Shown here piece by piece: positions 1 to 64,000 of a DNA stretch of 64,000 bases (its first letter is position 1; each line of letters starts with the position of its first letter). Origin of the DNA: an uncultured Chloroflexia bacterium (GTDB lineage Bacteria; Chloroflexota; Anaerolineae; Promineifilales; Promineifilaceae); contig CAVONO010000014.1 of assembly GCA_963697305.1 (NCBI GenBank), forward strand, positions 3,338 to 67,337, read 5' to 3'. The notes under the pieces were generated by a model, which did not search any database, had not been told where the DNA came from, and saw nothing but the letters and a program-made list of their open reading frames with translations. Made by a program: the position numbers and the translations under genes.

Positions 1-1620
1 GGTCGGCAGAAGATCCGCGACCTGGACCGCGAATTGGATGAAGAAGATCTGACCGACAGCCAGCAGGCGAAGGCGAAGTGGACGCAGTTGGAAGCGCTGG
101 TGGGCAGCGAAGCGCGGCTTAAAAACGTGGCCAGGGACATCATCGCCCATTTTGAACTGCGTCAGGAGGTCTTTGATGGCAAAGGGATGATCGTCACCAT
201 GTCGCGGCGCATCGCCGCCGCCCTCTACCGCGAGATCGTCGCTCTGCGCCCCGACTGGCACAGCGACGCGCTGGAGAAAGGGGCGATCAAAGTGGTCATG
301 ACCGCCGCTTCCTCCGACGGCCCCGAAATCGCCCTGCACCACACCAACAAACAGCAGCGCCGCGCCCTGGCCGAGCGCATGAAGACGCCGGGTGATGCGC
401 TGAAACTGGTCATCGTGCGCGATATGTGGCTGACCGGCTTCGATGTGCCCTCGCTGCACACGATGTATATTGACAAACCGATGCGCGGGCATAACCTGAT
501 GCAGGCCATCGCCCGCGTCAACCGCGTTTACAAGGACAAACCGGGCGGCCTGATTGTCGACTATCTGGGCATCGCCGCCGACCTGAAAAAAGCGCTCTCC
601 TTCTACTCCGACAGCGGCGGCAAAGGGGACCCGGCGGAGACGCAGGAACAGGCCGCTGCCATCATGCTTGAAAAACTGGAAGTTGTCTCGCAGATGTTCC
701 ACGGCTTCCCCTACGAAGATTATTTCGCGGCGGATACGGCGCAGAAGCTGGCGCTCATTTTAGCGGCCGAAGATTTCATCCTGGGGCTGGAAGATGGGAG
801 GCGGCGCTATATCAACCAGGTCACCGCCCTCTCGCAGGCCTTCGCCCTGGCCATCCCTCATGAGGAGGCGTTGGATGTCAAAGACGAGGTCGCCTTCTTC
901 CAGGCCGTCAAAGCGCGGCTGGTGAAGTTTGACAGCACCGGCAGCGGACGCACGGACGAGGAGATGGAAACCGCCATCCGCCAGGTGATTGATCAGGCCC
1001 TGGTCTCGGATAAGGTGATCGATATCTTCGATGCCGCCGGCATAAAAAAGCCAGATATCTCCATTCTCTCTGAGGAGTTCCTCCTGGAGCTCAAGGGTAT
1101 GGAGCACAAGAACCTGGCCCTGGAACTGCTGCGCAAACTGCTCAACGACGAAATCAAGGCGCGCGCCAAAACGAACCTGGTGCAGAGCAGAAAGCTGGAG
1201 GAAATGCTGGACGCTGCAATACAGCGGTACATCATTAAAGCGCTTACCTCGGCCGAGGTGATTGACGAGCTGATCCAGCTTGCTAAAGATATCGAAGAGA
1301 TGGATGGTGAAGCGAGCAAGATGGGTTTGTCGGAGTATGAGTATGCGTTTTATACGGCCGTGGCCAGCAACGACAGCGCCCGCGAATTAATGCAGCAAGA
1401 CAGACTGCGCGAGCTGGCCGTCGTCCTAACCGAGCGCGTGCGCCAAAACACCTCCATCGATTGGACAATCAAAGAAAGCGTCCGCGCCAAGCTCAAAGTA
1501 ATCGTCAAACGCACCCTCCGCCAGTACGGCTACCCGCCCGATATGCAGAAATTGGCTACGGATACGGTCTTGCAGCAGGCGGAGTTGATTGCGGATGAGT
1601 TGGCTAACGTTAATGAATAA
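1..1620 (+). CDS. hsdR: Type I restriction enzyme R subunit (HsdR), C-terminal ~540 aa; the 5' end lies outside the window
   Basis: The frame is open from nt 1 to the TAA at 1618-1620. It carries the helicase C-terminal motifs DMWLTGFDVPSLHTMYIDKP and QAIARVNR and a long helical tail, as in HsdR proteins. Confidence 0.85.
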   Translation, partial: GRQKIRDLDRELDEEDLTDSQQAKAKWTQLEALVGSEARLKNVARDIIAHFELRQEVFDGKGMIVTMSRRIAAALYREIVALRPDWHSDALEKGAIKVVMTAASSDGPEIALHHTNKQQRRALAERMKTPGDALKLVIVRDMWLTGFDVPSLHTMYIDKPMRGHNLMQAIARVNRVYKDKPGGLIVDYLGIAADLKKALSFYSDSGGKGDPAETQEQAAAIMLEKLEVVSQMFHGFPYEDYFAADTAQKLALILAAEDFILGLEDGRRRYINQVTALSQAFALAIPHEEALDVKDEVAFFQAVKARLVKFDSTGSGRTDEEMETAIRQVIDQALVSDKVIDIFDAAGIKKPDISILSEEFLLELKGMEHKNLALELLRKLLNDEIKARAKTNLVQSRKLEEMLDAAIQRYIIKALTSAEVIDELIQLAKDIEEMDGEASKMGLSEYEYAFYTAVASNDSARELMQQDRLRELAVVLTERVRQNTSIDWTIKESVRAKLKVIVKRTLRQYGYPPDMQKLATDTVLQQAELIADELANVNE

Positions 1621-1705
1621 ACTAGGGCACATAGAAATGGCTTGTTACAGTGCAAACAAACCAAATCGAACAGTACCTCTATGATGATTCCTGGGAGAAA
1701 AACCA

Positions 1706-5557: not shown

Positions 5558-6753
5558 ACCAACCGTTTTGTCGCTGTTCGAACACCGCACACGGACCACT
5601 GACAAGGTCACGTTTCCACAAGCGCGTCATTTGCGAGAAAGCTACAAAAACTATCTGAAGGTGGAACAGAGTTGGGATGAGCCAGGCCAGTTTAACCTGA
5701 CCGCCAGTAACTATATCGGCGTCATTACCATCGACGGCCTTCGCATCCATATCCAACCCAAAACACCGCTCACCAACCTGTTCTTCATGCTAACCTACGC
5801 CTACGAGCTGGCCAAATTCCGTGACGGGGAATCGCCCCTCGCGGCAGGTGAGGATCTTTTCAAATTCTTGATCAAGATTTTCGTGAAGCAAGTCGACCAC
5901 CTTGTGCGCAAGGGCATCTACCGTGGCTATGTCGACTTCGAAGAGAACCACCCCTATCTACGCGGTCGTCTGCTGCTGGCCAGGCAGCTGCAGACCAACG
6001 CAGCACAACTGACACGTTTCCACCAGCGGACCAATGAGCTGACGGCCGATCTGCGCGAGAATCGCATCTTGAAATTCACCCTCTGGCAGTTGTCAAGGGC
6101 CAGCTTCGATGATGCAGTTCTTCGCCGCCAGCTTCGCCGCACGCTCTCCGCGTTTTCCGAAGCGCCCCTGGCACCGGTCAGCCCCGCCGACTGTGATCGC
6201 ATTATCTACAATCGTCTAAACGGCGCTTACCAGACGCCCATCAATTTCGGCGCGACTCTTCATGCAGCATCTTTCTTTAGAAGGTCACAGCGGCGAAACG
6301 CCATTCATGACATATTTACTGCCCATGCACTATATATTTGAATTGTTTGTGGGCCGCTTTTTGGAAGAGTATTTTGCCGCCGACCCCACCTACAGTATTG
6401 ATATCAAACCACAAATCTATCTGGATGTGGCGCAGCGAGAAGAAGGACAACCTGATATCGTCCTCAATAAGAACGGCCGGCCACACTTGATTCTGGACAC
6501 TAAGTACAAGTTGTTCGGAGAAAAGCCGATCCGAGACGATCTCAATCAAATGTTCATGTACTGTCACACAATGGGCGTGCGCCGGGCGGTGCTCATCTAC
6601 AGCGATGCCCGAGCTTTCCATTATGAGGGTCAATTCAAGGGCATGTCCTTATCGGCACGGCCGTTGGCACTGGATGGGGATTTGGCGACGTTCCGCGAAC
6701 GCTGCCGCGTTTTTGCCGAAGGCTTCGCCAAAGAAATCGCAACTGATGTTTGA
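5547..6753 (+). pseudogene. mcrC: McrC-family PD-(D/E)xK nuclease subunit interrupted by one frameshift
   Basis: The ATG at 5547 overlaps the upstream stop by 11 nt. The N-terminal McrC pattern (YIGVITIDGLRIHIQPK, YLRGRLL) runs into a stop at 6341. The C-terminal part (FMTYLLPMHYIFELFVGRFL, PDIVLN...LILDTKYK) is in the +1 frame, which is open from ~6220. The junction reads ...YQTPIN/LARLFMQHLSLEG if one base near 6246-6250 is removed. Confidence 0.75.
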
Positions 6754-6855: not shown

Positions 6856-7600
6856 GTGGACCACCCATTTAAAGTAGGCGAAACCTACCACAACCGTTAC
6901 GGCCGTTACCAGGTCCTCTCTATCGACGAACCCAAAATGCGCGTTCGCTATGAAGACGGCCGTGAGATCAATCTGACCATCACCATCCAGGCCCAGATAT
7001 GGGAAAACATACGGCTGCAAGAATCGACGGCCGTCAAGAAAGACACGCGACGAAAATCCAAAAAGCAGGGCCAGAAAGCGCCGTCCAAGGCCAGCGAACA
7101 AGAGGAGCTGATTGCTGAGATCCTCGAAACCGACGACGCCATCTTCGAAATTCTGACCCGCTTGGTTATCCCCCCAGGGCAGCTTGACCTCTACCTGTTC
7201 TTCGTCAGAAACCCCGACGATTACTTCTCGCAGCAGCAAATTGCCGATGCAGTCAGAGGCGCTAATCTTGAGGGTCAGCGGGGCGTGTTTATGGCCTTTG
7301 GTAATCGGATTGGTCGCTCCCCCGTATCCCCGTGTTCGCTCGTTAAAACCGTACAACAGCTTGTTTTTTGAACGCAAGAGAATTGGGGGCAAAAGCTGTT
7401 TAAGGATTCGCCGTCGCGTGGTGGAAATATTTGAATCCTACCCGAAATTTTATGATTTCCTGATCAATGCCGCTCGCGGCTGGCTGCCGGAGGAGTTTGG
7501 ATCGCAAGGATGGGAGAATAGTACGGCCGTGCACCACGCGCAGCTGCGCTATTTTGACTTCTGGGAGCGGTATAAAGCTGATGCAAGGAAAAAAAGTTGA
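6856..7600 (+). pseudogene. Hypothetical protein (small N-terminal beta-rich module, basic linker, wHTH-like segment) with an apparent frameshift
   Basis: GAGGAGG RBS 6 nt upstream of the GTG at 6856. The first frame ends at 7371. The sequence continues plausibly in the +1 frame (PYNSLFFERKRIGGKSCLRI...YPKFYDFLINAARGW) to 7600. The shift lies within ~7310-7345, next to a C5 run. Confidence 0.4.
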
Positions 7601-7744
7601 GGAGTAGGCGCTTTAGCGGCAACGTGATTAAAGTGATTACTCCGTCCAGTTTCAACGCATCTTGATGATCGTTGGCGCGCCCCATAACGGTAAACTCAAC
7701 GGCCGTCTAATTTGCCCGGCTAACAAATATCCATGAACCCATAT

Positions 7745-8901: not shown

Positions 8902-9349
8902 AAACATCAAAAGGAACAAAGAAACAAAAGCTCCCCAAAACACCCTCTCAAAAAAGAGCAATACTCTAACTTGACATAAAACAATAACGAGAAGAGGCGG
9001 CAATTCGGCCCTCTATTTTCGCGCGTCGTCCTGCATGTTGGCCGTATATCATTAGGGTGCGATTAATCCGGCATACGGCCGTTTGTGAAAAAATGTACAC
9101 TGTACGTGGGCTGAGGGGTGATCAAGTCGTACGCCAGGTTATGAATCGAGTGTAGTTTTGTCACGCCATCCCGGTCTCGAGGAGAGACTCTGAGGGTCCA
9201 AGACCGGGTCTGCGCTGGACCCGTAAGCGGCGTGGCAACCGGCCTTTTTGGCGCGGCTGCGTGCCCGAGGAGGTGCTGATGGTTCCTGACTGATACTTTG
9301 GCTCATCTTAATCGTTGGTTTGGGTTAAGATTCACTTCAAGGAGAAATA

Positions 9350-10780
9350 ATGAGTACGCAAAGGGAAAGATCACCGAAGGTAACCATCTACGTTCTTGTG
9401 CTGTTTCTGCTGCTGGGGGGCATCATGGTCGCGGCCATTTTTGTTACACCCTCTTCCGCAGCCCATAAGCCTATCTCCAAAAACATCATCGTCCTCATCG
9501 CCGACGGCCGTGGCTTCAATCACGTCAGGCGGCGGACTACTACAACTATGGCAAGAAAGCGCGGCAGGTGTACGAGCACTTCCCGGTTCGTTCGGCCATG
9601 AGCACCTACATGGACTATGACGAGGGGGATCCCTGCTATGGGCCAGGGTTATGATCCGGCTGCTGCCTGGAGCGCGTTCGATTATGTGAGGATTGCTACA
9701 CGGATTCGGCCGCGGCCGCCACGGCGATGTCTACCGGCGTCAAGTCCTATGATGGCGCCATCGGCGTCGACATGGACGAGGAGTCAGTGCGCCACCTGCT
9801 GGAGATGGCGGAGGAGAAGGGCCAAGCGACGGGCGTGATCACCAGCGTCGAGTGGACGCACGCCACGCCGGCCGGTTTCGTGGCCCACAATGTATAGTCG
9901 CGACAATTATGCTGAAATCGGCCAGGAAATGGTCTATGACAGCGCGGCTGATGTGATCATGGGCGCCGGCCATCCCTGGTACGATGCCGACGGCGTAATG
10001 AAAGCGGATCCCGCCCAACACCTTCAAGTACGTGGGCGGCGAGACAACGTGGGATGACCTGGTGGCCGGGACCGCCGGAGGGGATGCTGATGGCGACGGC
10101 GCCGACGATCCCTGGACGCTCATCCAGACGCGTGCCGAGTTCCAGTCGCTGATGAGCGGCCCGACCCCGAAGCGTGTCCTGGGCACGGCGCAGGTGTACC
10201 AGACGCTTGCAGTCGAACCGCAGTGGTGATGGGTATGCCGATCCCTTTGTGGTGCCTCTGATAGATACGGTACCTACGCTGGAAGAGATGACCAAAGCGG
10301 CGCTCAACATCCTGGACGACGATCCCGATGGCCTGTTCCTGATGATTGAAGGCGGAGCGGTCGACTGGGCCAGCCATGCCAACCAATCCGGGCGCATGAT
10401 TGAAGAACATATCGACTTCGACAATTCTGTGCAGGCGGTGGTGGATTGGGTCCAGAAAAACAGCAACTGGGGCGAGACGCTGCTGATCGTCACCAGCGAC
10501 CATGAAACCGGCTATTTGACCGGTCCGGGCTCCGACCCCAGTTGGATGCCGCTGATCAACTAATGGCAAAGGCGTTCTGCCGGGCATGGAGTGGCACAGC
10601 ACTGATCACACCAACAGCCTGGTGCCGTTCTATGCCAAGGGGGACGGCAGCCGCATCTTCAAGACATTTGCCGATGAATTTGATCCGGTTCGCGGACGCT
10701 ATCTGGACAATACGGAGATGACTGCGGGCATCCAGTGGGCCATGGACCCGGTGGCCAGGCCCCGACGATCGTACAGGTAG
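9350..10780 (+). pseudogene. Alkaline phosphatase (PhoA family) with a signal/TM segment, broken by at least 7 frameshifts
   Basis: AP motifs are spread over three frames: [75 protein letters not shown] and HSTDHTNSLVPFYAKG. Frame switches occur near 9528, 9645, 9690, 9895, 10010, 10205 and 10560. Confidence 0.8.
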
Positions 10781-10892: not shown

Positions 10893-10895
10893 CAC

Positions 10896-12771: not shown

Positions 12772-13491
12772 TTGATGCCGGCCATGACCTCTCTCCTTTT
12801 AGGAGCGCAGCGCCTCGGCATCCCCTTGACTACCGGGCAAGTGGCTCAGTTTGAACAGTACCAGACGCTGCTGCTGGATTGGAACCTGCGTTTGAACCTA
12901 ACGGCCGTGCGCGAAAGCGACCAGATCCAGACGCGGCACTTTCTAGATTCGCTAACTTGTTTTCTGGCCACGGGTGACTTGAACGGCCGTTCCCTTATCG
13001 ACGTAGGCACGGGTGCCGGCTTTCCTGGTTTAGCGCTGAAGATCGCTTTTCCAGACCTAAAATTAACCCTGCTGGAAAGCGTGCACAAGAAAACGCGCTT
13101 CCTGCAAGCAGTGGTGGACGAGCTGCAGCTAGCCGGCGTTCAGATTATCGCCGGCCGTGCAGAAGGTGTTGCCCGCACCCCTGACCACCGCGAAGCTTAT
13201 GATTGGGCTGCAGCCCGCGCTGTGGCCGGCCTAAACATCCTGGTCGAGTATTTGTTGCCTTTCGTCCGTATAGGGGGGAGCGCCTTAGCCCAGAAGGGGC
13301 CCTCTGCCGTCACTGAAACGGCTGGTACTGAAAAAGCGATTTCAATCCTTGGCGGTGGCGCTGCGCAATTGCTGCCCGTGCAGCTCCCGGGTCACGATCA
13401 GCCGTCCTACCTGGTGGTGATAGAAAAGACAAATCCCACCCCAGACGCATATCCCCGTCGTGTGGGCGTCCCGGCAAAACGGCCGTTGTAG
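12772..13491 (+). CDS. rsmG: 16S rRNA (guanine527-N7)-methyltransferase
   Basis: LNLTAVRESDQIQTRHFLDSL and the SAM motif DVGTGAGFPGLALKI. The length is typical. The start is TTG 12772 or ATG 12775. Confidence 0.9.
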   Translation: MMPAMTSLLLGAQRLGIPLTTGQVAQFEQYQTLLLDWNLRLNLTAVRESDQIQTRHFLDSLTCFLATGDLNGRSLIDVGTGAGFPGLALKIAFPDLKLTLLESVHKKTRFLQAVVDELQLAGVQIIAGRAEGVARTPDHREAYDWAAARAVAGLNILVEYLLPFVRIGGSALAQKGPSAVTETAGTEKAISILGGGAAQLLPVQLPGHDQPSYLVVIEKTNPTPDAYPRRVGVPAKRPL

Positions 13492-43896: not shown

Positions 43897-44733
43897 TCAA
43901 TCAAAGTGATCTGCTAAGAAGCGGCGAGCTATCTCCTGGAACACTGTTTGTTGTTCCAGGATGGATACATGGCCGCATTCAGCCAGCATGTGCAGTTGCG
44001 CATTGGGCAGCAGCGCCTGCAAATCATGCGCGTCTGACGGGGGCACGACATGGTCGTTTTCGCCCCACACCAAACAGACAGGTTGGGTAATTTGGCCTAG
44101 TGACGGCCGTATATCAAGAAAGGCGGACGCTTTTATTACCTCGGCCGATGCGCGTGCCAACTTATAATCTTGCCGCCGCCGCTGCCACACGCTTTCATCT
44201 TGTTCTTCTGGCGCATAGAAAGGGGCTTTGATCTGTCGCTTAACCCACAGTGGCGATTGGGAAAAGGCGAAAGCAAGGTCGATCAGGCCGAGGGAGATGC
44301 CGATATGCTTCAGCAGTTTGGGATAGGCGCCGTTGCTCAATATGGAAGGCGCGGCCAAAATCAGGCTGCTTACATCTTGGGGATAGGCTACCGTATAAGC
44401 GACCCCCACTGTCCCGCCAAATGAATGGCCTAGCAGCGCACAGGGCGGCAGATCCAAAGCCATACAGAGGGCGGCCAACCACTCCACGAGATGGGCGTAG
44501 GTGTACGGCCGTGTGTTTTCACTGTAACCAAAGCCGGGAATGTCCGGGGCAAGCAGCCAGAATTCACCGGCCAGTCCGTGCATCGTCTCACGGAAACTGT
44601 CGGCGGCGGTGGACATGCCATGGAGGAGCAAAACGGGGCCCTTGTTGCCCTCACCAAGCATGTAGTAGTTTGTACGGACGCCTAAAGCGTCTACTTCGTA
44701 ACGGGGCGCTTCAGGATATATTTTGTTCACCAA
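43897..44733 (-). CDS. Alpha/beta-hydrolase, a tandem paralogue of the N-terminal half of the 42398-43831 product
   Basis: GHSFGG elbow and ECGHV. It aligns by eye at roughly half identity with the neighbouring hydrolase domain. Confidence 0.85.
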   Translation of the reverse strand: MVNKIYPEAPRYEVDALGVRTNYYMLGEGNKGPVLLLHGMSTAADSFRETMHGLAGEFWLLAPDIPGFGYSENTRPYTYAHLVEWLAALCMALDLPPCALLGHSFGGTVGVAYTVAYPQDVSSLILAAPSILSNGAYPKLLKHIGISLGLIDLAFAFSQSPLWVKRQIKAPFYAPEEQDESVWQRRRQDYKLARASAEVIKASAFLDIRPSLGQITQPVCLVWGENDHVVPPSDAHDLQALLPNAQLHMLAECGHVSILEQQTVFQEIARRFLADHFD

Positions 44734-46076: not shown

Positions 46077-46841
46077 ATGATCCGCTTTCTGCGCTGGCTG
46101 TTTGCGCCCCGTTTTCGCCCCTTGAAGCTGCTGCTCGCCGCTTGTTTACTGCTGCTCTTTTTTTGGTTCGCCTTGCAGGCCACAAACCTTCTGCGCGATT
46201 GGCGAGACCCGCGCAGCGAATCGTTTTCCCAGTGGTTGCAGGGAGATACGGGGTCCCGGGAGAAGCTGATCACGGTGCAGCGCGATCTCTGCCCAGAGGC
46301 GCCTTTTATCCTGCCCGCGGATGGTTTCATCGGCCTGCTCTACGGCGACCCGCGCGGCCCTTATTCACAGAGTTACCCCCACCAGGGCATTGATATCTTC
46401 AGCAACGCTGATCCCGGCGTGGTGCCGGTCTATGCCGCTTTTGACGGGTATGTCACCAGGGAAGCGGAATGGAAGAGCAGCTTGATTATACGCGTGCCGC
46501 AGGATCCGCTGCAGGCGGGAAGGCAGGTGTGGCTCTATTACACGCATATGGCGGACGAAGCGGGTAACGATTTCATCGAAGATGCCTTTCCTGCCGGCAC
46601 ACAAGACAAGTTTGTGCAGCAGGGCACCTTGTTGGGTTACACCGGGAACTATGATGGTAACGCTTTCCGTGATACTTGGGTGCATCTGCACTTTTCGGTG
46701 GTGAAAGATAAGGGCAACGGCCGTTACAGCAATGAATTGGACTTCGACAATACGCTCGATCCCTCTCCTTATTTGGGCATGTCTGTTAATTATGCTTGTG
46801 ATACGGCCGCCAGCGGTTGTTCTTCTACTCCTACTTGCTAA
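46077..46841 (+). CDS. M23 family metallopeptidase with an N-terminal TM/signal segment
   Basis: HQGIDIF (HxxxD) and WVHLHFSV (HxH). The ORF is open from TTG 46041, and ATG 46077 precedes the hydrophobic segment. Confidence 0.8.
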   Translation: MIRFLRWLFAPRFRPLKLLLAACLLLLFFWFALQATNLLRDWRDPRSESFSQWLQGDTGSREKLITVQRDLCPEAPFILPADGFIGLLYGDPRGPYSQSYPHQGIDIFSNADPGVVPVYAAFDGYVTREAEWKSSLIIRVPQDPLQAGRQVWLYYTHMADEAGNDFIEDAFPAGTQDKFVQQGTLLGYTGNYDGNAFRDTWVHLHFSVVKDKGNGRYSNELDFDNTLDPSPYLGMSVNYACDTAASGCSSTPTC

Positions 46842-47163: not shown

Positions 47164-49185
47164 ATGAATTTCGCTAAATTACTTGGGGCGGCCATCCTTC
47201 TGATCTTGCTTGTCAATAGAATTCCAGCATCTTTGGCCCAGGCCGATCTTGAGATCAAATTGAAGAACCGCAGCTTCGTGCCGCAGACGAGCGGGGCGAT
47301 GCGCGTAGCAGGGAGCAACGGGGCCGGCAGGCAGCATGTCATTTTGCAGTTTGCTGAACTTCCCGATCCGGAAATATTGGCGCAGTATGGTATTCAGCCG
47401 CTCAACTATATTCCTGATAATGCGATCATGGCTTCCGTTCCCGCCGGCTTTGAGCAGCGCAGTGCACCCGGCGTTCGTTGGATGGGACAGCTATTAGCGA
47501 CGGACAAAATCAGCGCCTATGTAAGCAAGCAGTTGGAAATGATGGCTGCAGATCAGCAGGTCACGCTGCTCGTGGAAGCGCACCCGGATGTGGATTCGCA
47601 GACGCTGGCTTCGCTCGCGGTCAGGGCCGGCGGCACATTCAACAGCCATCCCGCCCTGCCTGGCCATTTGGGGCTGGTCACGGGCACGCGGGAAGTGTTC
47701 CAGCAGCTTGCGCTTGACGAGCGCATTGCCTGGATCACGGCGGCAAGCGACGAGCTGGTGAACGGCGAAGCAGTATACTACTGCCCTGGACCTATTACAG
47801 AGTTTGGGCCGGTTGCTAATTATGTCGTTCAGGGCGATGGATGGGATGGGCCAGGGCTGGGTTCCGCAGCTCTAACCTATCATTTCCTCAATGGTACGCC
47901 TGACATTGGTGGATCGGGTGAAGAGGGAGCGGTGAGAGACGCGCTTGCCGTGTGGGCTAGTTACGTTGATCTCTCCTTTAGCGAAACGGGCACGGCGGGG
48001 CTTACGCGCTCGCTAGACATTCTGTGGGCAACGGGATCGCATGGCGATCCATACCCTTTTGATGGTCCGAGCGGAATATTGGCACATGCCTATTTTCCAT
48101 CACCACCCAATTCGGAAACGATCGCCGGTGATATCCATTTTGACGACGACGAAAACTGGTCGCTCAACACCCACATTCATATGTTTACAGTTGCGCTGCA
48201 TGAATCAGGTCATTCCCTGGGTCTGGCACATTCTGATGTTCCCGGGTCAGTGATGTATCCTTCTTATAGTGTAGCGGTGACAGACCTTCAGCCGGATGAT
48301 GTAGCGGGCATCCGCTCACTATATAGCGATAGTGGGAGCACAGATCCTGCACCTGACCCGCCTGTCTTGAACAGCATCTCCAACAGTGACGGAGATGGGA
48401 GTTTCACGGTAAGTTGGCCCAGCGTCGCCACCGCCAGCAGTTACACCTTACAGGAGTGGCACGACGGTGGGAGTTGGAACACGATTTACAGCGGGAACAG
48501 CAGCAGCCAGAATATCAACGGCCGTAGCTCAGGGGAATGGTGCTATCGTGCATTGGCTTCCAATACTGGGGGCGACAGCGGCTGGAGCAATACGCAGTGC
48601 GCGACGGTTACGGAGCTTGCGCCTGGCGCGCCCTTTTTGAAGAGCATCGCTAATAGCGACGGGGATGGGACCTATGCGGTAAGTTGGTCCATCATCGCCA
48701 ACGCCACCAGCTACAGCTTACAGGAGCAGCACGATAACGGTATCTGGAACACAATTTACAACGGCGGCGGCAGCAGCCAGAGCATCAACGGCCGTAGCCC
48801 GGGTGAATACTGTTATCGCGTACTGGCTGCCAATGGCGGAGGGGGCAGCGCCTGGAGCAATATGGTGTGCACGACGGTTACGGTGGATGTCGAACCATGC
48901 TATCTTCTGACGCGCGAGCATACGGGATTCGGCAGCGATCCAATAGCCACTCCTGCGCACTCGCCAGCATGTCCGATAGATCAGTACAACGCCGGAACCC
49001 TAATCAATCTGAGCGCCACGCCTGATTCGGGATGGTACGTGAGCGGCTGGAGCCGGACCACAAATGATGCCAGCACGGCCATCGTTAACAGCATCACAAT
49101 GCCGGCCCAAAACCATTCCATAGCGGTGCATTACGCCTTCAACGCAAGCGACTTTCATTTCATACCTTTTGTCTTGAAAGGGTAG
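47164..49185 (+). CDS. Secreted matrixin-type (M10) zinc metalloprotease with two FN3-like repeats and a C-terminal beta domain
   Basis: A signal peptide, then the metzincin motif HESGHSLGLAHS with the Met-turn SVMYP. Two ~90-aa repeats follow (SNSDGDGSFTVSW... and ANSDGDGTYAVSW...). Confidence 0.85.
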   Translation: MNFAKLLGAAILLILLVNRIPASLAQADLEIKLKNRSFVPQTSGAMRVAGSNGAGRQHVILQFAELPDPEILAQYGIQPLNYIPDNAIMASVPAGFEQRSAPGVRWMGQLLATDKISAYVSKQLEMMAADQQVTLLVEAHPDVDSQTLASLAVRAGGTFNSHPALPGHLGLVTGTREVFQQLALDERIAWITAASDELVNGEAVYYCPGPITEFGPVANYVVQGDGWDGPGLGSAALTYHFLNGTPDIGGSGEEGAVRDALAVWASYVDLSFSETGTAGLTRSLDILWATGSHGDPYPFDGPSGILAHAYFPSPPNSETIAGDIHFDDDENWSLNTHIHMFTVALHESGHSLGLAHSDVPGSVMYPSYSVAVTDLQPDDVAGIRSLYSDSGSTDPAPDPPVLNSISNSDGDGSFTVSWPSVATASSYTLQEWHDGGSWNTIYSGNSSSQNINGRSSGEWCYRALASNTGGDSGWSNTQCATVTELAPGAPFLKSIANSDGDGTYAVSWSIIANATSYSLQEQHDNGIWNTIYNGGGSSQSINGRSPGEYCYRVLAANGGGGSAWSNMVCTTVTVDVEPCYLLTREHTGFGSDPIATPAHSPACPIDQYNAGTLINLSATPDSGWYVSGWSRTTNDASTAIVNSITMPAQNHSIAVHYAFNASDFHFIPFVLKG

Positions 49186-49864: not shown

Positions 49865-50251
49865 ATGACGCGGACAACAGATGGAAATTACGGCAGCAGT
49901 TTTGATGAATTGCGGGTATTTGCACGGATGGTCGGCTTGCTGGCGCTGCTAACGGCCGTTCTTTATTTGCGCGCGCTGGCAAGTGGCGGATTCCTATATC
50001 GAGGAGACAGCGAAACGATTCCCGTCACAACGATATTGTTTGTGCTCATGCTTGTTGCGGCCGCAGGATTGGTGTTGACCTGGAAGTGGGAATGCCTTGG
50101 TGGCGTGGTGGCCGTATTAGGCTCCATTGCAGTGGCGTTCATTGTCTACAGCACCTTTAGTGAAAACCGGCTGCTGGCGACGCTTATCTACAGCTCCCCT
50201 TTTCTGGTCGCCGGCACCCTCTGTCTGGCTGATTGGTGGAAACATCGCTAG
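49865..50251 (+). CDS. Hypothetical small membrane protein (about 4 TM segments)
   Basis: GAGG RBS upstream of the ATG at 49865, with hydrophobic segments. No recognised family. Confidence 0.4.
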   Translation: MTRTTDGNYGSSFDELRVFARMVGLLALLTAVLYLRALASGGFLYRGDSETIPVTTILFVLMLVAAAGLVLTWKWECLGGVVAVLGSIAVAFIVYSTFSENRLLATLIYSSPFLVAGTLCLADWWKHR

Positions 50252-56032: not shown

Positions 56033-57066
56033 GCAGTCATATACGTGTAGGAATTGTGGGCACAGGAGTTATGGGGCGAACCCACGCTGCGGCCTGGGCG
56101 GTAACGGGCGCAACCATTGCCGGTTTCGTTTCCAAAGATGAAGCATCGGCACAGGAGTTGGCCACCCAGCACCAGGGGCAGGTTTATGGGGATTTGCCAT
56201 CGTTGATCGCCGATGTGGATGTAGTTGATGTTTGTGCACCAACGCACCGCCATCATGAAATTGTGCTGGCGGCGGCCGCCGCCGGCAAACATGTGGTTTG
56301 TGAAAAGCCGCTGGCGCGAACCGTGGCGCAAGGGCAAGAGATGATCGCCGCTTGTGAAGAGGCAGGGGTGAAACTGATGGTGGCCCACGTCGTGCGTTTC
56401 TTTCCTGAGTATGCCCAAGCGAAGGCACAGGTAGAGGGCGGGGCTATCGGACAGACGGCCGTGTTGCGCCTGACGCGCGGCTCCTTCCAGCCCAAGAAGG
56501 CGGTGGATAACTGGTTTATCGATTACGAGAAGTCTGGCGGCATGATGCTGGACTTGATGATTCACGACCTGGATTACGCGCGATGGGTGGCGGGTGAAGT
56601 GGACATGGTCTTCGCCAAGAAAATCAGCAGCAGCCATCCAGGCAGCAGCGTGGACCATGGTTTAGCTATTCTCAAGCATCGTAACGGCACGATCTCCCAT
56701 GTGGAGGGATCTTGGGCGTATCCCCCGCCCCTGTTCCGCACACGATTTGAAATCTCCGCTTCTAATGGCTTGATCCAGTTCGATTCGGATGATACGGCAG
56801 CGATTACTCTGCACCTGCGCCAGGCTGAAGAGGAAGGTATCCCAGATGTACCGCTGCCGGGCAGTCCTCTGAATGAAAGTCCTTATACAACGCAGATCAA
56901 AGCGTTCTATGCCTGCCTGGCCAACGATACGGCCGTTCCGGTCACAGGAGCCGATGGGCTAGCCGCTTTACAGATCGCGCTCGCGGCCATCGAATCGGCC
57001 GAAACTGGGCGACCCGTTGCGCTGCAACCCTTACCCGAAGTCGCAGCGCAGGAGGTAGTACAATGA
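56029..57066 (+). CDS. Gfo/Idh/MocA family oxidoreductase
   Basis: The Rossmann N-terminus IRVGIVGTGVMG and the VVCEKPLA motif. Its start overlaps the stop of the upstream permease. Confidence 0.85.
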   Translation: MSSHIRVGIVGTGVMGRTHAAAWAVTGATIAGFVSKDEASAQELATQHQGQVYGDLPSLIADVDVVDVCAPTHRHHEIVLAAAAAGKHVVCEKPLARTVAQGQEMIAACEEAGVKLMVAHVVRFFPEYAQAKAQVEGGAIGQTAVLRLTRGSFQPKKAVDNWFIDYEKSGGMMLDLMIHDLDYARWVAGEVDMVFAKKISSSHPGSSVDHGLAILKHRNGTISHVEGSWAYPPPLFRTRFEISASNGLIQFDSDDTAAITLHLRQAEEEGIPDVPLPGSPLNESPYTTQIKAFYACLANDTAVPVTGADGLAALQIALAAIESAETGRPVALQPLPEVAAQEVVQ

Positions 57067-59598: not shown

Positions 59599-61392
59599 GT
59601 GACAGGAGAGAAGTCTCGAAGGCGAGCAAATGTAGATGTATACCGGCGCCTTTTAGGTTATTTACGGCCGTATTCCAAACAGGTCATTTTGGCGTACACG
59701 GCGATGCTGGCCGTGACAGGGCTCAACCTCGTCGTGCCTTTGATCATCAAGAGAGCTATCGACGATGGTCTGGCTGCGGGCAATGCGCAGGCGCTGCTTA
59801 GGGCGGGCGTGGCCATCCTGGGCGTGGCCCTGGTGCGCGGGATCGCCGGCTTCGGCCAACGCTACTACGGCGAGTGGCTCTCGCACCGTACCGGCTATGA
59901 TCTACGCAATCGTTTCTACGACAGCGTGCAGTACCAACCTTTCTCATTTCATGATCGCAGCCATACCGGGGATATGATGAGTCGCGCTACTAGCGATATC
60001 TCGGAAACTGAGCGATTTACGGGAATTGGCCTGGCGGACTTACTGGCCACGATTATGCTGCTGACAGGCGTGATCATCGCCATGCTGCTGGAAGCGCCGC
60101 GCCTGGCCTTAATTGCGCTTTTGCCGTTCCCGGTGCTCATATTCGCTACAATTCGCTTTGGCAGCATCATACGGCCGATGTTCCAACGTATCCAGGAACA
60201 AATGGGCGTGCTCTCGACGACGATGCAGGAGAGTATGACCGGTATCAACGTGGTCAAAGCGTTCTCGCGCGAGCCCTATGAACTGGAAAAATTCGATAAG
60301 GAAAACGATTTGTGGTTTGAGCAGCGCCATCGCGTGATCCGGGCTTGGGCCAACAACTGGCCCTTATTCTCCTTCCTGGTGGCCTTGAGCATCTTTCTGC
60401 TGCTCTGGTTTGGCGGCCCGCTGGCCATGGCGGGGGCGGTCACCGCAGGCACACTCTTCGCCTTGATCTCTTATGTGCTGATGCTCAATGGTCCGGTGCA
60501 GCGGCTTGGGTTCCTGGTTAACCTGGCAGCCACGGCCGGCGCCAGCGCCTCGCGCGTATTCGAAATCATGGATACGCCCAGCGAACTTGTGGAGAAAGAA
60601 AATGCAAAAATCGCGGACCAGATCGCTGGGGACGTGCGCTTCGAGGGCGTTTGCTTTGCTTACCAGTCGGGCGTCAAGATTTTGAGCGACGTGTCATTTT
60701 ATGCCGAGCCAGGGCAAAAGATCGCTCTGATCGGGCCCACCGGTTCGGGAAAATCGACTGTGACCAATCTCATCTTGCGCTTCTATGATGTGAGCGACGG
60801 CCGTGTCCTGGTAGATGGCGTGGACGTGCGCGATTGGCAGTTGCACAGCCTGCGCTCCCATATCGGCATCGTGCAGCAGGCTCCCTTCTTGTTCAGCCAG
60901 TCTGTTGCCGAGAATATCGCTTACGGCCGTGCCGATGCCTCGGATGAAGAGATCATAGCGGCGGCCAAAGCGGCGCACGCCGACAAGTTCATCACTGAGA
61001 TGGCTGATGGATATAACACACGCGTCGGCGAGAGAGGTGTGACCTTGAGCGGCGGCCAGAAGCAGCGCGTGGCCATTGCACGGGCGCTGTTGACTGATCC
61101 GCGTATTTTGATCCTGGACGATTCGACGAGCAGCGTGGACACGGAGACGGAATATTTGATCCAGGAAGCACTCGAGGTGCTGATGGCAGGGCGCACGACC
61201 TTTATCATCGCCCAGAGATTGCAAACGCTGAAGAGCGCAGATGTAATCTTGGTGTTGGACAACGGCCGTATTGTGGAACGGGGCACGCATGATACTTTAC
61301 TGGCCAGGAAGGGTTTATACCAGCAGATTTACGACTTGCAGCTGAAAGATCAGGAAGAGTTCGTCGCTTTGCAAAGGCAGATGGGGGTATAG
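59599..61392 (+). CDS. ABC exporter, fused permease-ATPase (heterodimer partner 1)
   Basis: Six TM segments, Walker A GPTGSGKST, signature LSGGQKQRVAIARAL, Walker B ILILDD. The ORF is open from GTG 59506. I prefer GTG 59599, which has GAGG upstream. Confidence 0.85.
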   Translation: MTGEKSRRRANVDVYRRLLGYLRPYSKQVILAYTAMLAVTGLNLVVPLIIKRAIDDGLAAGNAQALLRAGVAILGVALVRGIAGFGQRYYGEWLSHRTGYDLRNRFYDSVQYQPFSFHDRSHTGDMMSRATSDISETERFTGIGLADLLATIMLLTGVIIAMLLEAPRLALIALLPFPVLIFATIRFGSIIRPMFQRIQEQMGVLSTTMQESMTGINVVKAFSREPYELEKFDKENDLWFEQRHRVIRAWANNWPLFSFLVALSIFLLLWFGGPLAMAGAVTAGTLFALISYVLMLNGPVQRLGFLVNLAATAGASASRVFEIMDTPSELVEKENAKIADQIAGDVRFEGVCFAYQSGVKILSDVSFYAEPGQKIALIGPTGSGKSTVTNLILRFYDVSDGRVLVDGVDVRDWQLHSLRSHIGIVQQAPFLFSQSVAENIAYGRADASDEEIIAAAKAAHADKFITEMADGYNTRVGERGVTLSGGQKQRVAIARALLTDPRILILDDSTSSVDTETEYLIQEALEVLMAGRTTFIIAQRLQTLKSADVILVLDNGRIVERGTHDTLLARKGLYQQIYDLQLKDQEEFVALQRQMGV

Positions 61393-61395
61393 ACC

Positions 61396-63276
61396 ATGTC
61401 TACTCACAATGGATCCAGTACAGACCGTTCGCGTCGCGGTTCGCGTCTGTTGCGGCGCGATGAGAGCATTGAAGAGCAGATCGGAGACCTGCTACCCGAG
61501 GAGGATGACCAGCTAGGCAAGGCGTATGACGGTCGCTTGGTGCGTCGCCTTTCGGTCTATTTACAGCCGTATAAGGCTCGCCTGATTCTGGCTATTGTGC
61601 TGATGATCATCAGTTCGCTTCTAGCGGTCTCGCAGCCGTTGATCATCGGCCTAGCTATCGACAAAGGTATCCGCGCCGGCTCGATGACGGCGCTGCGCAC
61701 CTGGTCCCTCATCTTCCTGGTGGCTGCAGTGGGAGCATGGATAACCAATCGTTGGCGTATCGCCATTATGGCCTACGTGGGAACGGCCGTGGTCGCCGAT
61801 TATCGCAGCCACCTTTTCCGCCACTTACACACCTTGTCGCTCAGTTTCTTCAACAACTACAGCGTGGGTCGCCTGATGAGCCGGCTGATCAGTGATATCG
61901 GCGTGGTGCAGGATTTTATCACCTGGTCGATCACTGGCTTGTTCCGCTCGGTTTTCACGCTCGCGGGCATCGTGATCGCCATGTTTTTACTCAATTGGCA
62001 GTTGGCGCTGGTTACTTTTTCGGTGCTGCCGCTGATGGCCATTTTGACCAATTATTGGCGCAAACATGTACGTATCGCCTACCGGGCCACGCGCCAGCGC
62101 CTTTCGCTGATCAACGGCTACTTGAACGAATCGATCACCGGCATCCGGGTCACGAAAAGCTTCACACGCGAGGAGCGCAACTACCAATATTTCAACAATC
62201 TGAACCACTCCTACTTTAACGCCAATGTCGATGCTTCGCGCCTCTCGGCCATATTCTTCCCCAGCGTTGACCTGATGGGTTCGCTGGCGACGGCGCTGGT
62301 CGTGGGTGTAGGTGGCTGGCTGGTATTGGGCGACGCGCTGACGGCGGGAACGCTGGTCGCCTTCGTCTTGTATGTGGATCATTTTTTCGAGCCGATTCGG
62401 GAACTGGCACAACGTTATAATGTCTTCCAGGCCACGATGGCCGCCAGCGAACGGGTATTTGGTCTATTGGATATCGAACCGGCTATCGCCGACGCGCCTG
62501 AAGCAACGTCACTGCCTCGCATAAATGGACGGGTGGAGTTCCGCGATGTGAGCTTCGGTTACGATGATCGTACGCTGGTGCTGCAGGGGGTCAATCTAAG
62601 CGCGGAACCAGGACAGCGCATCGCTCTGGTGGGCGAAACGGGTGCGGGGAAGAGCACAATCGTACGCCTGTTGGCCCGTTTTTTCGACGTTAGTAGTGGA
62701 AAACTACTGATCGACGGCTTTGATATTCGCCAGATTACACAAGAGAGCTTGCGCCAACAGCTGGGTATCGTCTTGCAGGATACGTTCTTATTCAAGGGCA
62801 GCATTATGGAAAATATCCGCTACGGCCGTCTCGATGCCACTGATGAAGAAGTGATCGACGCGGCTAAAGCGGTGGGGGCACACGAGTTCATCAGCAAGAT
62901 GGTGGATGGTTATGAGACGGATGTCGGGGAGAATGGCGGGAACTTGAGTGTCGGCCAGCGGCAGATCATCTCTTTCGCACGGGCACTGCTGGCGGACCCC
63001 AGTATTCTCGTCCTCGATGAAGCCACGAGCAGCGTGGATACGGCGACGGAAAGGATTATCCAGGAAGCGATGGATACGCTGATGGCCGGGCGCACAAGTT
63101 TCGTCATCGCCCATCGTCTGAGCACGATAGTCACTGCGGATCAGATCGTGGTATTGGATAACGGCCGTATTGTGGAGCAAGGGTCGCACGAAGAGCTGCT
63201 GGGCGAGGAAGGGCGGTACTACAATCTGTACACCATGCAGTGGGCGCAGGAAGGATCGTCTTTTAGTGCCAATTGA
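61396..63276 (+). CDS. ABC exporter, fused permease-ATPase (heterodimer partner 2)
   Basis: Walker A GETGAGKST, signature LSVGQRQIISFARAL, Walker B ILVLDE. It starts 4 nt after the upstream stop. Confidence 0.9.
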   Translation: MSTHNGSSTDRSRRGSRLLRRDESIEEQIGDLLPEEDDQLGKAYDGRLVRRLSVYLQPYKARLILAIVLMIISSLLAVSQPLIIGLAIDKGIRAGSMTALRTWSLIFLVAAVGAWITNRWRIAIMAYVGTAVVADYRSHLFRHLHTLSLSFFNNYSVGRLMSRLISDIGVVQDFITWSITGLFRSVFTLAGIVIAMFLLNWQLALVTFSVLPLMAILTNYWRKHVRIAYRATRQRLSLINGYLNESITGIRVTKSFTREERNYQYFNNLNHSYFNANVDASRLSAIFFPSVDLMGSLATALVVGVGGWLVLGDALTAGTLVAFVLYVDHFFEPIRELAQRYNVFQATMAASERVFGLLDIEPAIADAPEATSLPRINGRVEFRDVSFGYDDRTLVLQGVNLSAEPGQRIALVGETGAGKSTIVRLLARFFDVSSGKLLIDGFDIRQITQESLRQQLGIVLQDTFLFKGSIMENIRYGRLDATDEEVIDAAKAVGAHEFISKMVDGYETDVGENGGNLSVGQRQIISFARALLADPSILVLDEATSSVDTATERIIQEAMDTLMAGRTSFVIAHRLSTIVTADQIVVLDNGRIVEQGSHEELLGEEGRYYNLYTMQWAQEGSSFSAN

Positions 63277-64000
63277 TGTCGTTGCGGGAACGGGTAGCAG
63301 CTGGCGACGATGGCTGATTTTGGGGTTGGCAGCGGTTCTGTTGTTGGCAGGATGTGGCCAGCATAACGGCCAACAGTCAACAACCAACAGCCAACAGCCA
63401 ACAGCCAACAGCCAACAGCCAACCGTTCGCGGGACTACCGTTGTGGAGGCGCAAGGAAGTGGCCAGACAGCAACTATGTCTCCCACCTCGTCGATCACGC
63501 CTGTTCCCTCTTTCACCCCCATTCCGACCCTTAAAGCCGTTCCAACTTCCACCCCAGAGCCGACGCCGACGGCCGCGCCGGCTTTTCCTTTGTATAAAGG
63601 GCCAGCTCTGAAGCGAGAGGATATTGGAGTCCAGGTTCATATTCACCACGAAGATATGGACGAGATTATGGGGCATTTGCGTGCGTTGGGGGTGGGCTGG
63701 GTGAAGGTGCAGGTCTCTTGGAAACTATACCAATCCGCGCCAGACCAGTACACGCAAGATCGCCTGGCGGAATTGGATGGGCTGGTGGATGCGGCGCAGG
63801 CTAATGACATCGAGGTTTTGCTCAATGTATCTAAAGCGCCTGAGTGGAGCCGGTCAACGACGGAGCTGGATGGTCCGCCAACTGATTACGGCCTGTACCA
63901 GGATTTCATGGCTTTTTTGGCGGGCCGCTACCGCGGACGGGTAGCGGCGTTTGAGTTGTGGAATGAGCCGAACTTACAGCGGGAGTGGAATGGATCGCGG
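63266..64000 (+). CDS. GH5-like (clan GH-A) glycoside hydrolase lipoprotein; the 3' end lies outside the window
   Basis: The GTG at 63266 overlaps the upstream stop. Lipobox LLLAGC, a Q/S/T/P-rich linker, then GVGWVKVQVSW...FELWNEPN (the NEP catalytic-acid motif). The frame is open to nt 64000. Confidence 0.6.
   Translation, partial: MPIDVVAGTGSSWRRWLILGLAAVLLLAGCGQHNGQQSTTNSQQPTANSQQPTVRGTTVVEAQGSGQTATMSPTSSITPVPSFTPIPTLKAVPTSTPEPTPTAAPAFPLYKGPALKREDIGVQVHIHHEDMDEIMGHLRALGVGWVKVQVSWKLYQSAPDQYTQDRLAELDGLVDAAQANDIEVLLNVSKAPEWSRSTTELDGPPTDYGLYQDFMAFLAGRYRGRVAAFELWNEPNLQREWNGSR
63371..63426 (+). repeat. Heptanucleotide tandem repeat (CAACAGC)n inside the lipoprotein CDS
   Basis: Units CAACAGT CAACAAC then CAACAGC x5 then CAACCGT. 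It is translated as ...QQSTTNSQQPTANSQQPT... directly after the lipobox Cys. Confidence 0.9.

Follow-up and report, generated by a model that had tools for sequence, protein, structure and literature searches.

We present an analysis of the octamer palindrome ACGGCCGT in a stretch of 64,000 nucleotides from an uncultured Chloroflexia bacterium (assembly GCA_963697305.1, contig CAVONO010000014.1, positions 3,338 to 67,337), referred to below as the window, meaning the whole stretch at its full length. By simple gene calls made for this analysis 84% of the window is coding, and its genes include a restriction and defense island at the beginning, the genes of GidB/RsmG and RecF, a sulfatase, peptidases, a histidine kinase, and two tandem ABC exporters near the end. 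An earlier note, made from the sequence alone, had pointed to ACGGCCGT as a highly iterated palindrome (HIP) comparable to the HIP1 of cyanobacteria (GCGATCGC). The window comes from an uncultured Chloroflexota lineage close to Promineifilaceae, to judge from its RecF, which groups with uncultured Chloroflexota that bear the labels Anaerolineaceae, Promineifilaceae or Ardenticatenaceae (its closest match, 99% identical, is encoded on a 1.7-kb JGI contig). Loci fetched for comparison are designated by L numbers.

Results

An exact search finds ACGGCCGT 47 times in the window, at the same 47 positions that the earlier note had listed from a hand count, with 0 missed and 0 additional. The G+C content of the window is 54.6%. 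In 100 dinucleotide-preserving shuffles the octamer occurs 1.09 times on average and at most 4 times; Markov models of order 2 and 3 predict 1.6 and 3.9 copies, respectively, and the Poisson probability of at least 47 copies given an expectation of 6.65 is 3e-24. If a HIP is taken to be a G+C-rich palindrome that is the top word of its length and reaches 10 times or more the Markov expectation, the octamer qualifies with 47 copies against 1.1 (order 1) to 6.7 (order 4). It is the most frequent 8-mer of the window by a wide margin: the following nine are mainly its own overlaps, the best unrelated 8-mer has 16 copies, and no other palindromic octamer has more than 8. The HIP1 word GCGATCGC occurs 5 times, compared to 3.9 expected. 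Among palindromic hexamers CGGCCG is the most over-represented (125 versus 32.6), and the dozens of variants matching seven of the eight bases that had been reported earlier are present, namely 29 of the form BCGGCCGT and 25 of the form ACGGCCGV, that is, 54 at the outer positions.

The copies lie in coding and non-coding DNA alike. As the earlier note stated, most of them (41 of 47) are inside called genes, on both coding strands and in three frames, where they encode Thr-Ala-Val (TAV; 15 copies), [N/D/Y/H]-Gly-Arg (19 copies) or x-Arg-Pro-x (7 copies); its examples of Asn-Gly-Arg in both ABC exporters and in both repeats of the matrixin hold when the reading frames are checked. The other 6 copies fall outside called genes, which make up all but 16% of the window (P = 0.35), indicating a similar density in both compartments. 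The outcome that had been proposed as a refutation, namely that codon usage or composition accounts for the excess, is not what we observe, in that synonymous-codon shuffles, which preserve the proteins and the codon usage, yield 4.0-4.7 copies (maximum 12 of 300 shuffles) compared to the 41 in coding sequence. Codon usage alone predicts that the octamer would spell about 16% of TAV (0.37 x 0.43) and about 4% of [NDYH]GR (~0.5 x 0.48 x 0.18), while in the window it spells 15 of 17 TAV, 19 of 30 [NDYH]GR and 7 of 14 xRPx, such that the compatible peptides are near saturation. The tripeptides themselves are in excess, with 17 TAV versus 7.0 and 30 xGR versus 11.0 expected (2.4-2.7x), and consequently the motif has also changed amino acids.

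A by-product of base composition, codon usage or favored peptides, or a piece of a longer repeat such as a repetitive extragenic palindromic (REP) element, a miniature inverted-repeat transposable element (MITE) or a satellite, would be the obvious alternative explanation of the excess, and we give it practically no chance. Two observations could be cited in its support: in some metagenome contigs the octamer is found within a longer repeat, GTGTACACGGCCGTGTACAC, and the order-6 Markov expectation of 43.8 is near the observed count. However, the expectations of order 5 and 6 approach that count because the 6-mers and 7-mers (ACGGCCG with 72 and CGGCCGT with 76 occurrences) are largely the octamer's own 47 copies, which makes the argument circular. 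The 15 bases on each side of the 47 copies are unrelated and the composition within +/-12 nt is near background, with only weak symmetric preferences for A at -1 and G at -4; the unrelated flanks exclude REP, MITE and satellite elements in the window. Thus a composition or codon artefact is rejected by the Markov models and the synonymous shuffles, and a longer repeat as the carrier is rejected by the flank analysis. Independent assemblies from NCBI, ENA and JGI, moreover, give the same picture. For the window, the flanks, the spread over frames and non-coding DNA, and the synonymous shuffles together refute this alternative. Rfam and tRNA scans of the window gave no matches. We conclude, with very little doubt, that ACGGCCGT is a true HIP and a signal of the DNA itself rather than of proteins or RNA.

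Nearest-neighbor distances between sites are indistinguishable from random at the local scale in 12 of 13 loci (coefficient of variation, CV, near 1), and regular spacing at this scale was rejected. The window is slightly over-dispersed (CV 1.20, P = 0.049) because of three motif-free stretches at 1.7-6.3, 34.2-41.0 and 50.0-56.4 kb. In these three stretches no clear deviation in G+C content or in G+C at third codon positions was seen, and the compatible tripeptides are missing rather than present and unconverted; consequently, recent import cannot be asserted for them.

Alignment with syntenic RecF regions of relatives shows how the sites persist; the background here consists of all 8-nt windows in the same alignments rather than of composition-matched palindromes. 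All 7 sites are conserved in L006 (78.8% nucleotide identity; background 19.6%, P = 1e-5) and all 4 in L001 (80.2%; background 20.8%, P = 2e-3). At larger distances, 5 of 10 are conserved in L153 (70.6%; background 6.6%, P = 2e-4) and 4 of 9 in L154 (69.4%; background 5.3%, P = 8e-4), and the comparisons with L002 (69.9%; 2 of 9, background 5.8%, P = 0.09) and L152 (67.8%; 1 of 5, background 5.4%, P = 0.24) are not significant. The partners of non-conserved sites often differ by one base. At 19629 the series CCGGCCAA (L154), ACGGCCGA (L153, L002) and ACGGCCGT (window, L006) represents a stepwise gain, and at 18384 a site has been lost in the window, which now reads ACGTCCGT. From the one-base partners, the stepwise series and the lost site it follows that copies arise by point substitution and are then retained. 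They arise where the coding sequence tolerates them, amino-acid changes included, and once present they outlast the neighboring sequence by far. The tandem ABC exporter paralogs (59506-63276), with an identity of 38% in protein and 51% in DNA, have the octamer in common at two homologous columns, compared to a background of 2.5% conserved 8-mers; either these sites are older than the ancient duplication or two separate conversions hit the same conserved x-Gly-Arg peptides.

The octamer is not confined to the window (Table 1; relatives are represented by about 20 kb each). It is the top 8-mer in L001, L005-L009, L149-L151, L153 and L154, and in the RecF regions of relatives the enrichment, as top or joint top 8-mer, reaches down to 67% RecF identity. 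Metagenome contigs were also scanned for clusters of three copies, and the matches listed include contigs of 7-15 kb with ordinary chromosomal genes and 2-3 copies per kb, one of which (L051) belongs to an Anaerolineales organism by its wax-ester synthase. Homologs of that synthase in large assemblies led to L149-L151, which were sampled without regard to the motif. The order-3 Markov expectation is about 1.2 copies in each of these three loci, and the density in these independently sampled Candidatus (Ca.) Leptofilum and Anaerolineales genomes is 1.4-1.8 per kb. There the octamer spells 42 of 43 TAV, and TAV itself occurs 13-16 times versus about 2 expected (6-7x excess); as in the window, the excess goes beyond codon usage and all frames and non-coding DNA are used. 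The motif is thus a lineage-wide trait with exceptions, the RecF clade, Ca. Leptofilum and Anaerolineales being positive and L152, L003 and L004 weak or negative. The clade that has the ACGGCCGT HIP consists of uncultured Chloroflexota (Promineifilaceae / Anaerolineales-type), and their phages share it.

Table 1. Copies of ACGGCCGT in loci of relatives
Locus	RecF identity	Copies	Length (kb)	Remarks
L001	83%	4	4.6	
L006-L009	83%	10-12	14-20	
L005 (CP070822.1)	82%	7	21	
L153	76%	14	21	
L002	75%	6	21	
L154	67%	10	21	47% G+C
L152 (Promineifilaceae)	65%	2	14	not enriched
L003, L004	60%	0-1		not enriched
L149 (Ca. Leptofilum, Promineifilaceae)		34	21.6	
L150 (Anaerolineales GCA_041390905.1)		29	21.4	
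L151 (uncultured assembly ERZ25039527, contig_46005)		38	21.4	

The anatomy of the motif was examined through its one-off variants in three pools of DNA: unbiased cellular (about 170 kb), pattern-selected cellular (140 kb) and phage (107 kb). Observed/expected ratios are 1.0-5.9 over the three sets for variants at the outer positions (1.6-5.9 in the unbiased cellular and phage sets), compared to mostly 0-1.2 for variants at the six inner positions. In the window, A stands on 59% of the half-sites, and independent flanks predict 43.8 A..T copies versus 47 seen. The unit is a fixed core CGGCCG in which each half-site has an independent, lineage-specific preference for the flanking base. The preferences amount to dialects: AACGGCCGTT in L150/L151, with A at -1 in 91%; strict ACGGCCGT in phage L013/L162; RCGGCCGY in phages L171, L169 and L016; and WCGGCCGW / TTCGGCCGAA in phage L159 and, to a weak degree, in L152. 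In lineages of high density the full 8- or 10-mer accounts for nearly all CGGCCG (38 of 43 in L151). The suggestion in the earlier note that CGGCCG is the functional core gains indirect support from being the sole part of the motif that is constant across dialects. In phages L171, L169 and L016, CGGCCG reaches 5.8-7.8 per kb versus about 1 per kb expected, mainly as RCGGCCGY, and this EagI-type site is far denser there than in any cellular locus examined.

Phage loci were obtained from three IMG/VR scans for three clustered copies, which returned 19, 11 and 13 stretches; the phage samples and part of the metagenome samples were thus selected via the motif itself and are biased to dense genomes. 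We estimate the number of chance matches at less than 1, yet some stretches with 3-4 copies resemble chance or simple-repeat matches. In many of the stretches the octamer outnumbers every other 8-mer, at 1.4-4 per kb, and the motif-rich ones encode tape-measure, minor tail and portal proteins. The assignment of hosts rests on one portal family: the portal of phage L017, which uses the AACGGCCGTT dialect, has 54% identical homologs in the chromosomes from which L002 and L153 derive, and also in assemblies named as Anaerolineales and Promineifilaceae. The portal-capsid cluster of the L153 genome (L155 9768-18694) has 13 copies in 8.9 kb, or 1.46 per kb versus 0.88 per kb in its flanks, and the corresponding cluster of the L002 genome (L156 9750-19760) has 0 in 10 kb. 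The defense island of the window has none at 1706-6341. Phage DNA of this host group can therefore bear the motif at host-like density and in the host dialect, although it does not always do so. Since the IMG/VR scans favor dense genomes, we make no claim that phages exceed their hosts in density. That phages and prophages related to prophages of this clade carry the motif as densely as the host or more densely, and in its dialect, fits a process acting inside the cell and argues against the site being an active restriction target.

Discussion

Taken together, ACGGCCGT is a symmetric DNA-level signal that is centered on its core, made by substitution, long retained, altering proteins, and acting on resident phage DNA. 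The claim of the earlier note that its density and behavior parallel HIP1 is borne out by the excess beyond codon usage, the unrelated flanks, the use of different frames and non-coding DNA, the conservation, the bias of one-off variants to the outer positions and the lineage-wide spread. Both motifs are G+C-rich palindromes of 8 bp and the top 8-mer of their genomes, both exceed what codon usage predicts by a large factor (ten-fold or more here), and both are dispersed in all frames and in non-coding DNA. Both are conserved between genomes above control sequence (PMC4390886, PMC5861425), and in both the one-off variants gather at the first and last base, as Elhai described for HIP1 (PMC4390886). 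In each case the 6-bp core is a known restriction or modification site (CGATCG in HIP1, CGGCCG here), some lineages have palindromic extensions to 10 bp (GGCGATCGCC for HIP1, AACGGCCGTT here; PMC4390886), and the phyletic distribution is patchy.

The differences are equally instructive. The sequence is another one and so is the phylum, the Chloroflexota in question being non-photosynthetic. There is no GATC inside ACGGCCGT, so no Dam-type methylase can be involved; and because the outer bases are A and T, the 'G-methylC' explanation that Elhai offered for the outer G and C of HIP1 is not transferable. HIP1 has known cognate methyltransferases, its CGATCG being methylated by resident orphan enzymes, and presence on phage genomes is documented for ACGGCCGT. 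That the phenomenon is not bound to one sequence is apparent from the alternate HIPs of cyanobacteria (the TCGATCGA derivative, GGCGCC, GCSGC and RCCGGY; Elhai 2015), each of which pairs with a methylase of matching specificity (Elhai 2015, PMC4390886). The flanks change around a fixed core there too, as between GCGATCGC and TCGATCGA, and the CGGCCG dialects look alike in kind; Elhai described the same relation of core and flanks for CGATCG and the TCGATCGA derivative (PMC4390886). However, none of the reported alternate HIPs contains CGGCCG and all are cyanobacterial, the survey having covered cyanobacteria only, with 0 occurrences of CGGCCG (PMC4390886). In the literature searched, a limited library, no paper was found that treats ACGGCCGT or AACGGCCGTT as an iterated palindrome, in agreement with the statement of the earlier note that the octamer had not been described as a HIP. 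Within that literature HIPs are otherwise described only in cyanobacteria, and the present case adds a HIP of new sequence from a new phylum, for which dialects and carriage by phages are documented.

How such a signal is written can be considered in light of known systems. In Escherichia coli a cytosine methylase, Dcm, whose site is CCWGG, and the T:G mismatch endonuclease Vsr convert near-cognate sequence into the cognate site, and this, so far as we are aware, is the only mechanistically established way for a methylase site to become over-represented. By analogy with HIP1, a resident symmetric, presumably dimeric, protein would read ACGG|CCGT, the likeliest candidate being an orphan cytosine methyltransferase of the EagI type coupled to methyl-directed or short-patch mismatch correction. 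Correction of mismatches towards the cognate sequence, selection for dense methylated marks, or both would create and maintain the sites, and the process would act on all DNA that replicates in these cells, including phage DNA. The earlier note had suggested, by the same analogy, a link to a resident DNA methyltransferase or to a repair or recombination bias. We put this methylation- and repair-linked mechanism forward as the best explanation, though tentatively, being slightly more inclined to doubt it than to accept it.

Several points weigh against it. Motif IV of N6/N4 methylases ([DNS]PP[YFW]) and the PROSITE patterns of 5-methylcytosine (m5C) methylases were searched for in all six reading frames of the window and of the loci fetched by then. 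None of the PROSITE m5C signatures occurs in the window or in about 170 fetched loci, and neither a methyltransferase of fitting specificity nor Vsr nor another candidate reader was seen near the sites in this DNA. The only finds were a methylase on L028, a large open reading frame (ORF) with NPPY on L129, and a HindIII-type pair in L149, none with a matching specificity. Furthermore, since CGGCCG in dense lineages is nearly always part of the 8- or 10-mer, the reader must see 8-10 bp, which is more than the 6-bp site of a typical methylase. The fingerprint of very-short-patch repair was looked for and rejected: C-to-T one-off variants are not specifically depleted (observed/expected about 1), in contrast to E. 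coli, where the T-containing one-off words are depleted. Very-short-patch repair as known from that species also gives mild enrichment only, compared to the excess of at least 10x found here. The mechanism of HIP1 is itself unsettled (PMC5861425; bioRxiv 10.64898/2026.06.24.733823). In favor of the mechanism, CGGCCG-specific methylation of cytosine, both 4mC (N4-methylcytosine) and 5mC (5-methylcytosine), does exist in environmental genomes according to the Nanomotif supplement; the one such bin that was looked up in it, the anaerobic-digester bin.1.215, has 70% G+C, and neither ACGGCCG nor ACGGCCGT is mentioned in the portion of the supplementary files that was searched.

Alternatively, the motif could be a self-recognition signal for the uptake or recombination of incoming DNA, like the uptake signal sequences (USS) of Haemophilus or the DNA uptake sequences (DUS) of Neisseria, having been spread by biased uptake and recombination. 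USS and DUS likewise occur about once per kb, originate by molecular drive through point substitution, affect the encoded peptides and form species-specific dialects. The density of 0.5-3 per kb found here equals theirs, and the presence of copies in all frames with an imprint on peptide composition, the strong orthologous conservation, and the flank dialects of the lineages, which recall those of DUS, all agree with this model. However, the uptake sequences known so far lack symmetry and require a competence receptor, and those of Neisseria and Haemophilus are rarer in prophages and recently acquired DNA, whereas ACGGCCGT is a perfect palindrome that tailed phages and one prophage-like cluster bear as densely as the host or more densely. 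Genes for competence were not seen in the window, and natural competence is, to our knowledge, not known for these uncultured organisms. The uptake model thus fits the density, the dialects and the proteome imprint, and fits the palindromic form and the phage content poorly; we regard it as unlikely, if still worth serious consideration. For HIP1 it has lately been favored (bioRxiv 10.64898/2026.06.24.733823), and recent preprints link HIP1 to methylation-dependent transformation and the DNA-uptake machinery (bioRxiv 10.1101/2024.09.10.611283; bioRxiv 10.64898/2026.06.24.733823).

Two further models are possible and have little support. If the octamer were the binding site of an abundant symmetric nucleoid protein that organizes or segregates the chromosome, with selection on the number and placement of sites, one would understand the palindrome with independent half-site preferences, which fits a dimeric binder, the 10-bp form of some lineages, which exceeds most methylase sites, and the conservation, which suggests selection on individual sites. 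Such a role in chromosome architecture was proposed for HIP1 by Xu et al. (2018) from kilobase-scale periodicity (PMC5861425). Local spacing, however, is random-like in all but one of the loci and slightly over-dispersed in the window, which at 64 kb is too short for periodicity over tens of kb. Thousands of coding-sequence sites per genome also far exceed the architectural needs that we are aware of, and phage genomes share the motif, so that we consider this model improbable. More improbable still, in our estimate, is a Chi-like 'self' mark that attenuates a nuclease of the RecBCD/AddAB type or another host nuclease, for which host and phage would both be selected to hold copies. The octamer is over-represented and has the length of Chi, and the top densities are those of phages (up to 4 per kb), which would be understandable if copies shielded DNA ends, but this excess in phages is partly an ascertainment effect because the scans required three clustered copies. 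All Chi sequences known to us are asymmetric and strand-skewed relative to replication, while a palindrome reads alike on both strands and cannot carry direction, and the density is several times that of 8-mer Chi sites.

The wider implication, which we consider somewhat more probable than its opposite, is that HIPs are not restricted to cyanobacteria: an independent CGGCCG system with evolving dialects exists in Chloroflexota, raises tripeptides up to 6-7 fold and, unlike uptake sequences, is shared with phages in the dialect of the host, such that a general mechanism internal to the cell writes a short palindrome into any replicating DNA. If so, a repair bias guided by methylation or a system of self-marking could be at work, and comparison of the two phyla could identify the mechanism. 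HIP1 has been known for about thirty years, and its origin and function are still disputed between methylation-guided repair, chromosome architecture and DNA uptake. A second HIP with a different sequence in an unrelated phylum constitutes an independent replicate: a gene family, methylation type or repair component common to both systems would be a strong causal candidate, and explanations that depend on GATC or on HIP1's G-methylC context are weakened. The lineages concerned are abundant filamentous Chloroflexota of soils and activated sludge that have been assembled from long reads, so that the raw data already available allow the methylation state of the motif to be read out. In practice, the motif and its dialects could mark contigs for binning and link phages to Chloroflexota hosts, and motif-poor stretches could flag recently acquired DNA. 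Finally, Thr-Ala-Val, whose 6-7x excess is spelled nearly entirely by the octamer, offers a clear case of a DNA-level process overriding neutrality at the level of proteins.

Additional observations

The individual copies and their gene context are listed in Table 2. The ORF at 21452-22063 (-) is LysE-like by synteny with a Pfam-annotated gene in L006.

Table 2. Sites in the window. Every row is a copy of ACGGCCGT except the decayed site at 18384; positions are exact, the palindrome has no strand, and genes follow the calls of this analysis with the gene strand in brackets
Position	Gene or ORF	Frame	Orthologous sites and remarks
1354..1361	type I HsdR-like gene (1-1620, +)	T-A-V	
6657..6664	outside gene calls		within ORF 6262-6753 (McrC C-terminal fragment)
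6899..6906	ORF 6856-7371 (+)	Y-G-R	
6956..6963	ORF 6856-7371 (+)	D-G-R	
7027..7034	ORF 6856-7371 (+)	T-A-V	
7523..7530	non-coding by gene calls		
7699..7706	non-coding by gene calls		
9075..9082	non-coding by gene calls		in poorly coding stretch 8500-11300
9504..9511	non-coding by gene calls		in poorly coding stretch 8500-11300
12901..12908	GidB/RsmG (12772-13491, +)	T-A-V	conserved L153, L002, L152
12983..12990	GidB/RsmG	N-G-R	conserved L154
13479..13486	GidB/RsmG, end	K-R-P-L	conserved L153
14080..14087	RecF (13635-14849, -)	T-A-V	conserved L006, L001, L005, L154
14802..14809	RecF	Y-G-R	conserved L006, L001, L005, L153, L002
16064..16071	sulfatase (15154-16752, +)	D-G-R	conserved L006, L001
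16355..16362	sulfatase (15154-16752, +)	N-G-R	conserved L006, L001; one-off ACGGGCGT in L153
18384..18391			decayed copy, ACGTCCGT; ACGGCCGT at orthologous position in L006, L153, L002
19629..19636	PKD/CAP protein (18354-20570, -)	Y-G-R	ACGGCCGA in L153 and L002, CCGGCCAA in L154
19959..19966	PKD/CAP protein (18354-20570, -)	D-G-R	conserved L006, L153, L154
21783..21790	ORF 21452-22063 (-)	T-A-V	conserved L006, L153, L154; ATGGCCGT in L002
26716..26723	InhA-like peptidase (25767-27923, -)	T-A-V	
27271..27278	InhA-like peptidase (25767-27923, -)	T-A-V	
28915..28922	FabH-like gene (28254-29420, +)	N-G-R	
29580..29587	ORF 29514-30182 (-)	N-G-R	
29836..29843	ORF 29514-30182 (-)	T-A-V	
31190..31197	non-coding		upstream of histidine kinase
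32987..32994	GAF/PAS histidine kinase (31402-33789, +)	N-G-R	
34236..34243	ORF 33786-34490 (+)	T-A-V	
41060..41067	MFS transporter (40241-41515, +)	T-A-V	
41255..41262	MFS transporter (40241-41515, +)	T-A-V	
41858..41865	ORF 41559-42368 (-)	I-R-P-S	
42559..42566	hydrolase/LOG-like gene (42398-43831, -)	Q-R-P-L	
44103..44110	ORF 43897-44733 (-)	I-R-P-S	
44505..44512	ORF 43897-44733 (-)	T-R-P-Y	
45566..45573	peptidase S58 (44778-45731, -)	E-R-P-L	
46717..46724	M23 peptidase-like gene (46041-46841, +)	N-G-R	
48518..48525	matrixin (47164-49185, +), repeat 1	N-G-R-S	
48788..48795	matrixin (47164-49185, +), repeat 2	N-G-R-S	
49952..49959	ORF 49865-50251 (+)	T-A-V	
56455..56462	Gfo/Idh/MocA oxidoreductase (56029-57066, +)	T-A-V	
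56929..56936	Gfo/Idh/MocA oxidoreductase (56029-57066, +)	T-A-V	
59664..59671	ABC exporter 1 (59506-61392, +)	L-R-P-Y	one-off ACAGCCGT opposite in paralog
60797..60804	ABC exporter 1	D-G-R	
60923..60930	ABC exporter 1	Y-G-R	alignment column of 62822 in paralog
61262..61269	ABC exporter 1	N-G-R-I	alignment column of 63161 in paralog
61783..61790	ABC exporter 2 (61396-63276, +)	T-A-V	
62822..62829	ABC exporter 2	Y-G-R	
63161..63168	ABC exporter 2	N-G-R-I	

The defense island at 1-6753 consists of a type I HsdR of which the C-terminal part is present (1-1620), an McrB-like protein of 1283 aa (1706-5557) that has DUF2461 and AAA_5 domains, and an McrC that is split into two overlapping ORFs, 5547-6341 matching positions 1-190 and 6262-6753 matching positions 197-318 of the Pfam McrBC model. 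The part from 1706 to 6341 is free of the octamer. The split suggests a frameshifted and possibly inactive methylcytosine-dependent restriction system, or an assembly error; as a matter of speculation, an inactivated McrBC would fit a host that methylates cytosine. In the poorly coding stretch at 8500-11300 there is just a piece of an alkaline phosphatase (10174-10563), which covers positions 236-322 of the 423 in the Pfam model and is therefore probably a decayed gene.

Three of the fetched loci encode methylases of other kinds or a candidate for one. In L028, a motif-rich phage or prophage locus, an IS1595-family transposase adjoins an N6/N4 DNA methylase and an MvaI/BcnI-family nuclease (8314-10738), a pair that is a CCWGG/CCSGG-type system with a specificity unrelated to CGGCCG. 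The motif-rich cellular contig L129 (21 copies in 10.8 kb) has a 1383-aa ORF at 1652-5803 with an NPPY motif, which may be an adenine methylase of type IIG/IIL or of the BREX type. In L149 (659-2614) a HindIII-family nuclease adjoins an N6/N4 methylase, an ordinary type II system that is not linked to the motif.

The portal-capsid clusters of L155 and L156 (9-10 kb) contain the portal, a Phage_capsid_4 protein, an SU10-type adaptor and small ORFs, and occupy one and the same chromosomal position, flanked by a 5'-3' exonuclease/YokU gene on one side and by YceI/sulfatase genes on the other, in genomes with about 75% RecF identity. No terminase or integrase was seen in the 20 kb around either cluster. 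The cluster could be a conserved cryptic prophage or a domesticated element resembling a gene-transfer agent.

The longer repeat GTGTACACGGCCGTGTACAC that includes the octamer occurs at 7-18 copies per kb in short metagenome contigs, namely L031, L037, L038, L045, L047, L053, L058, L061-L063, L073-L075 and similar ones (samples Ga0056108, Ga0056133-5, Ga0209259, Ga0209459). It looks like a satellite or REP-like element of another organism, distinct from the dispersed palindrome.

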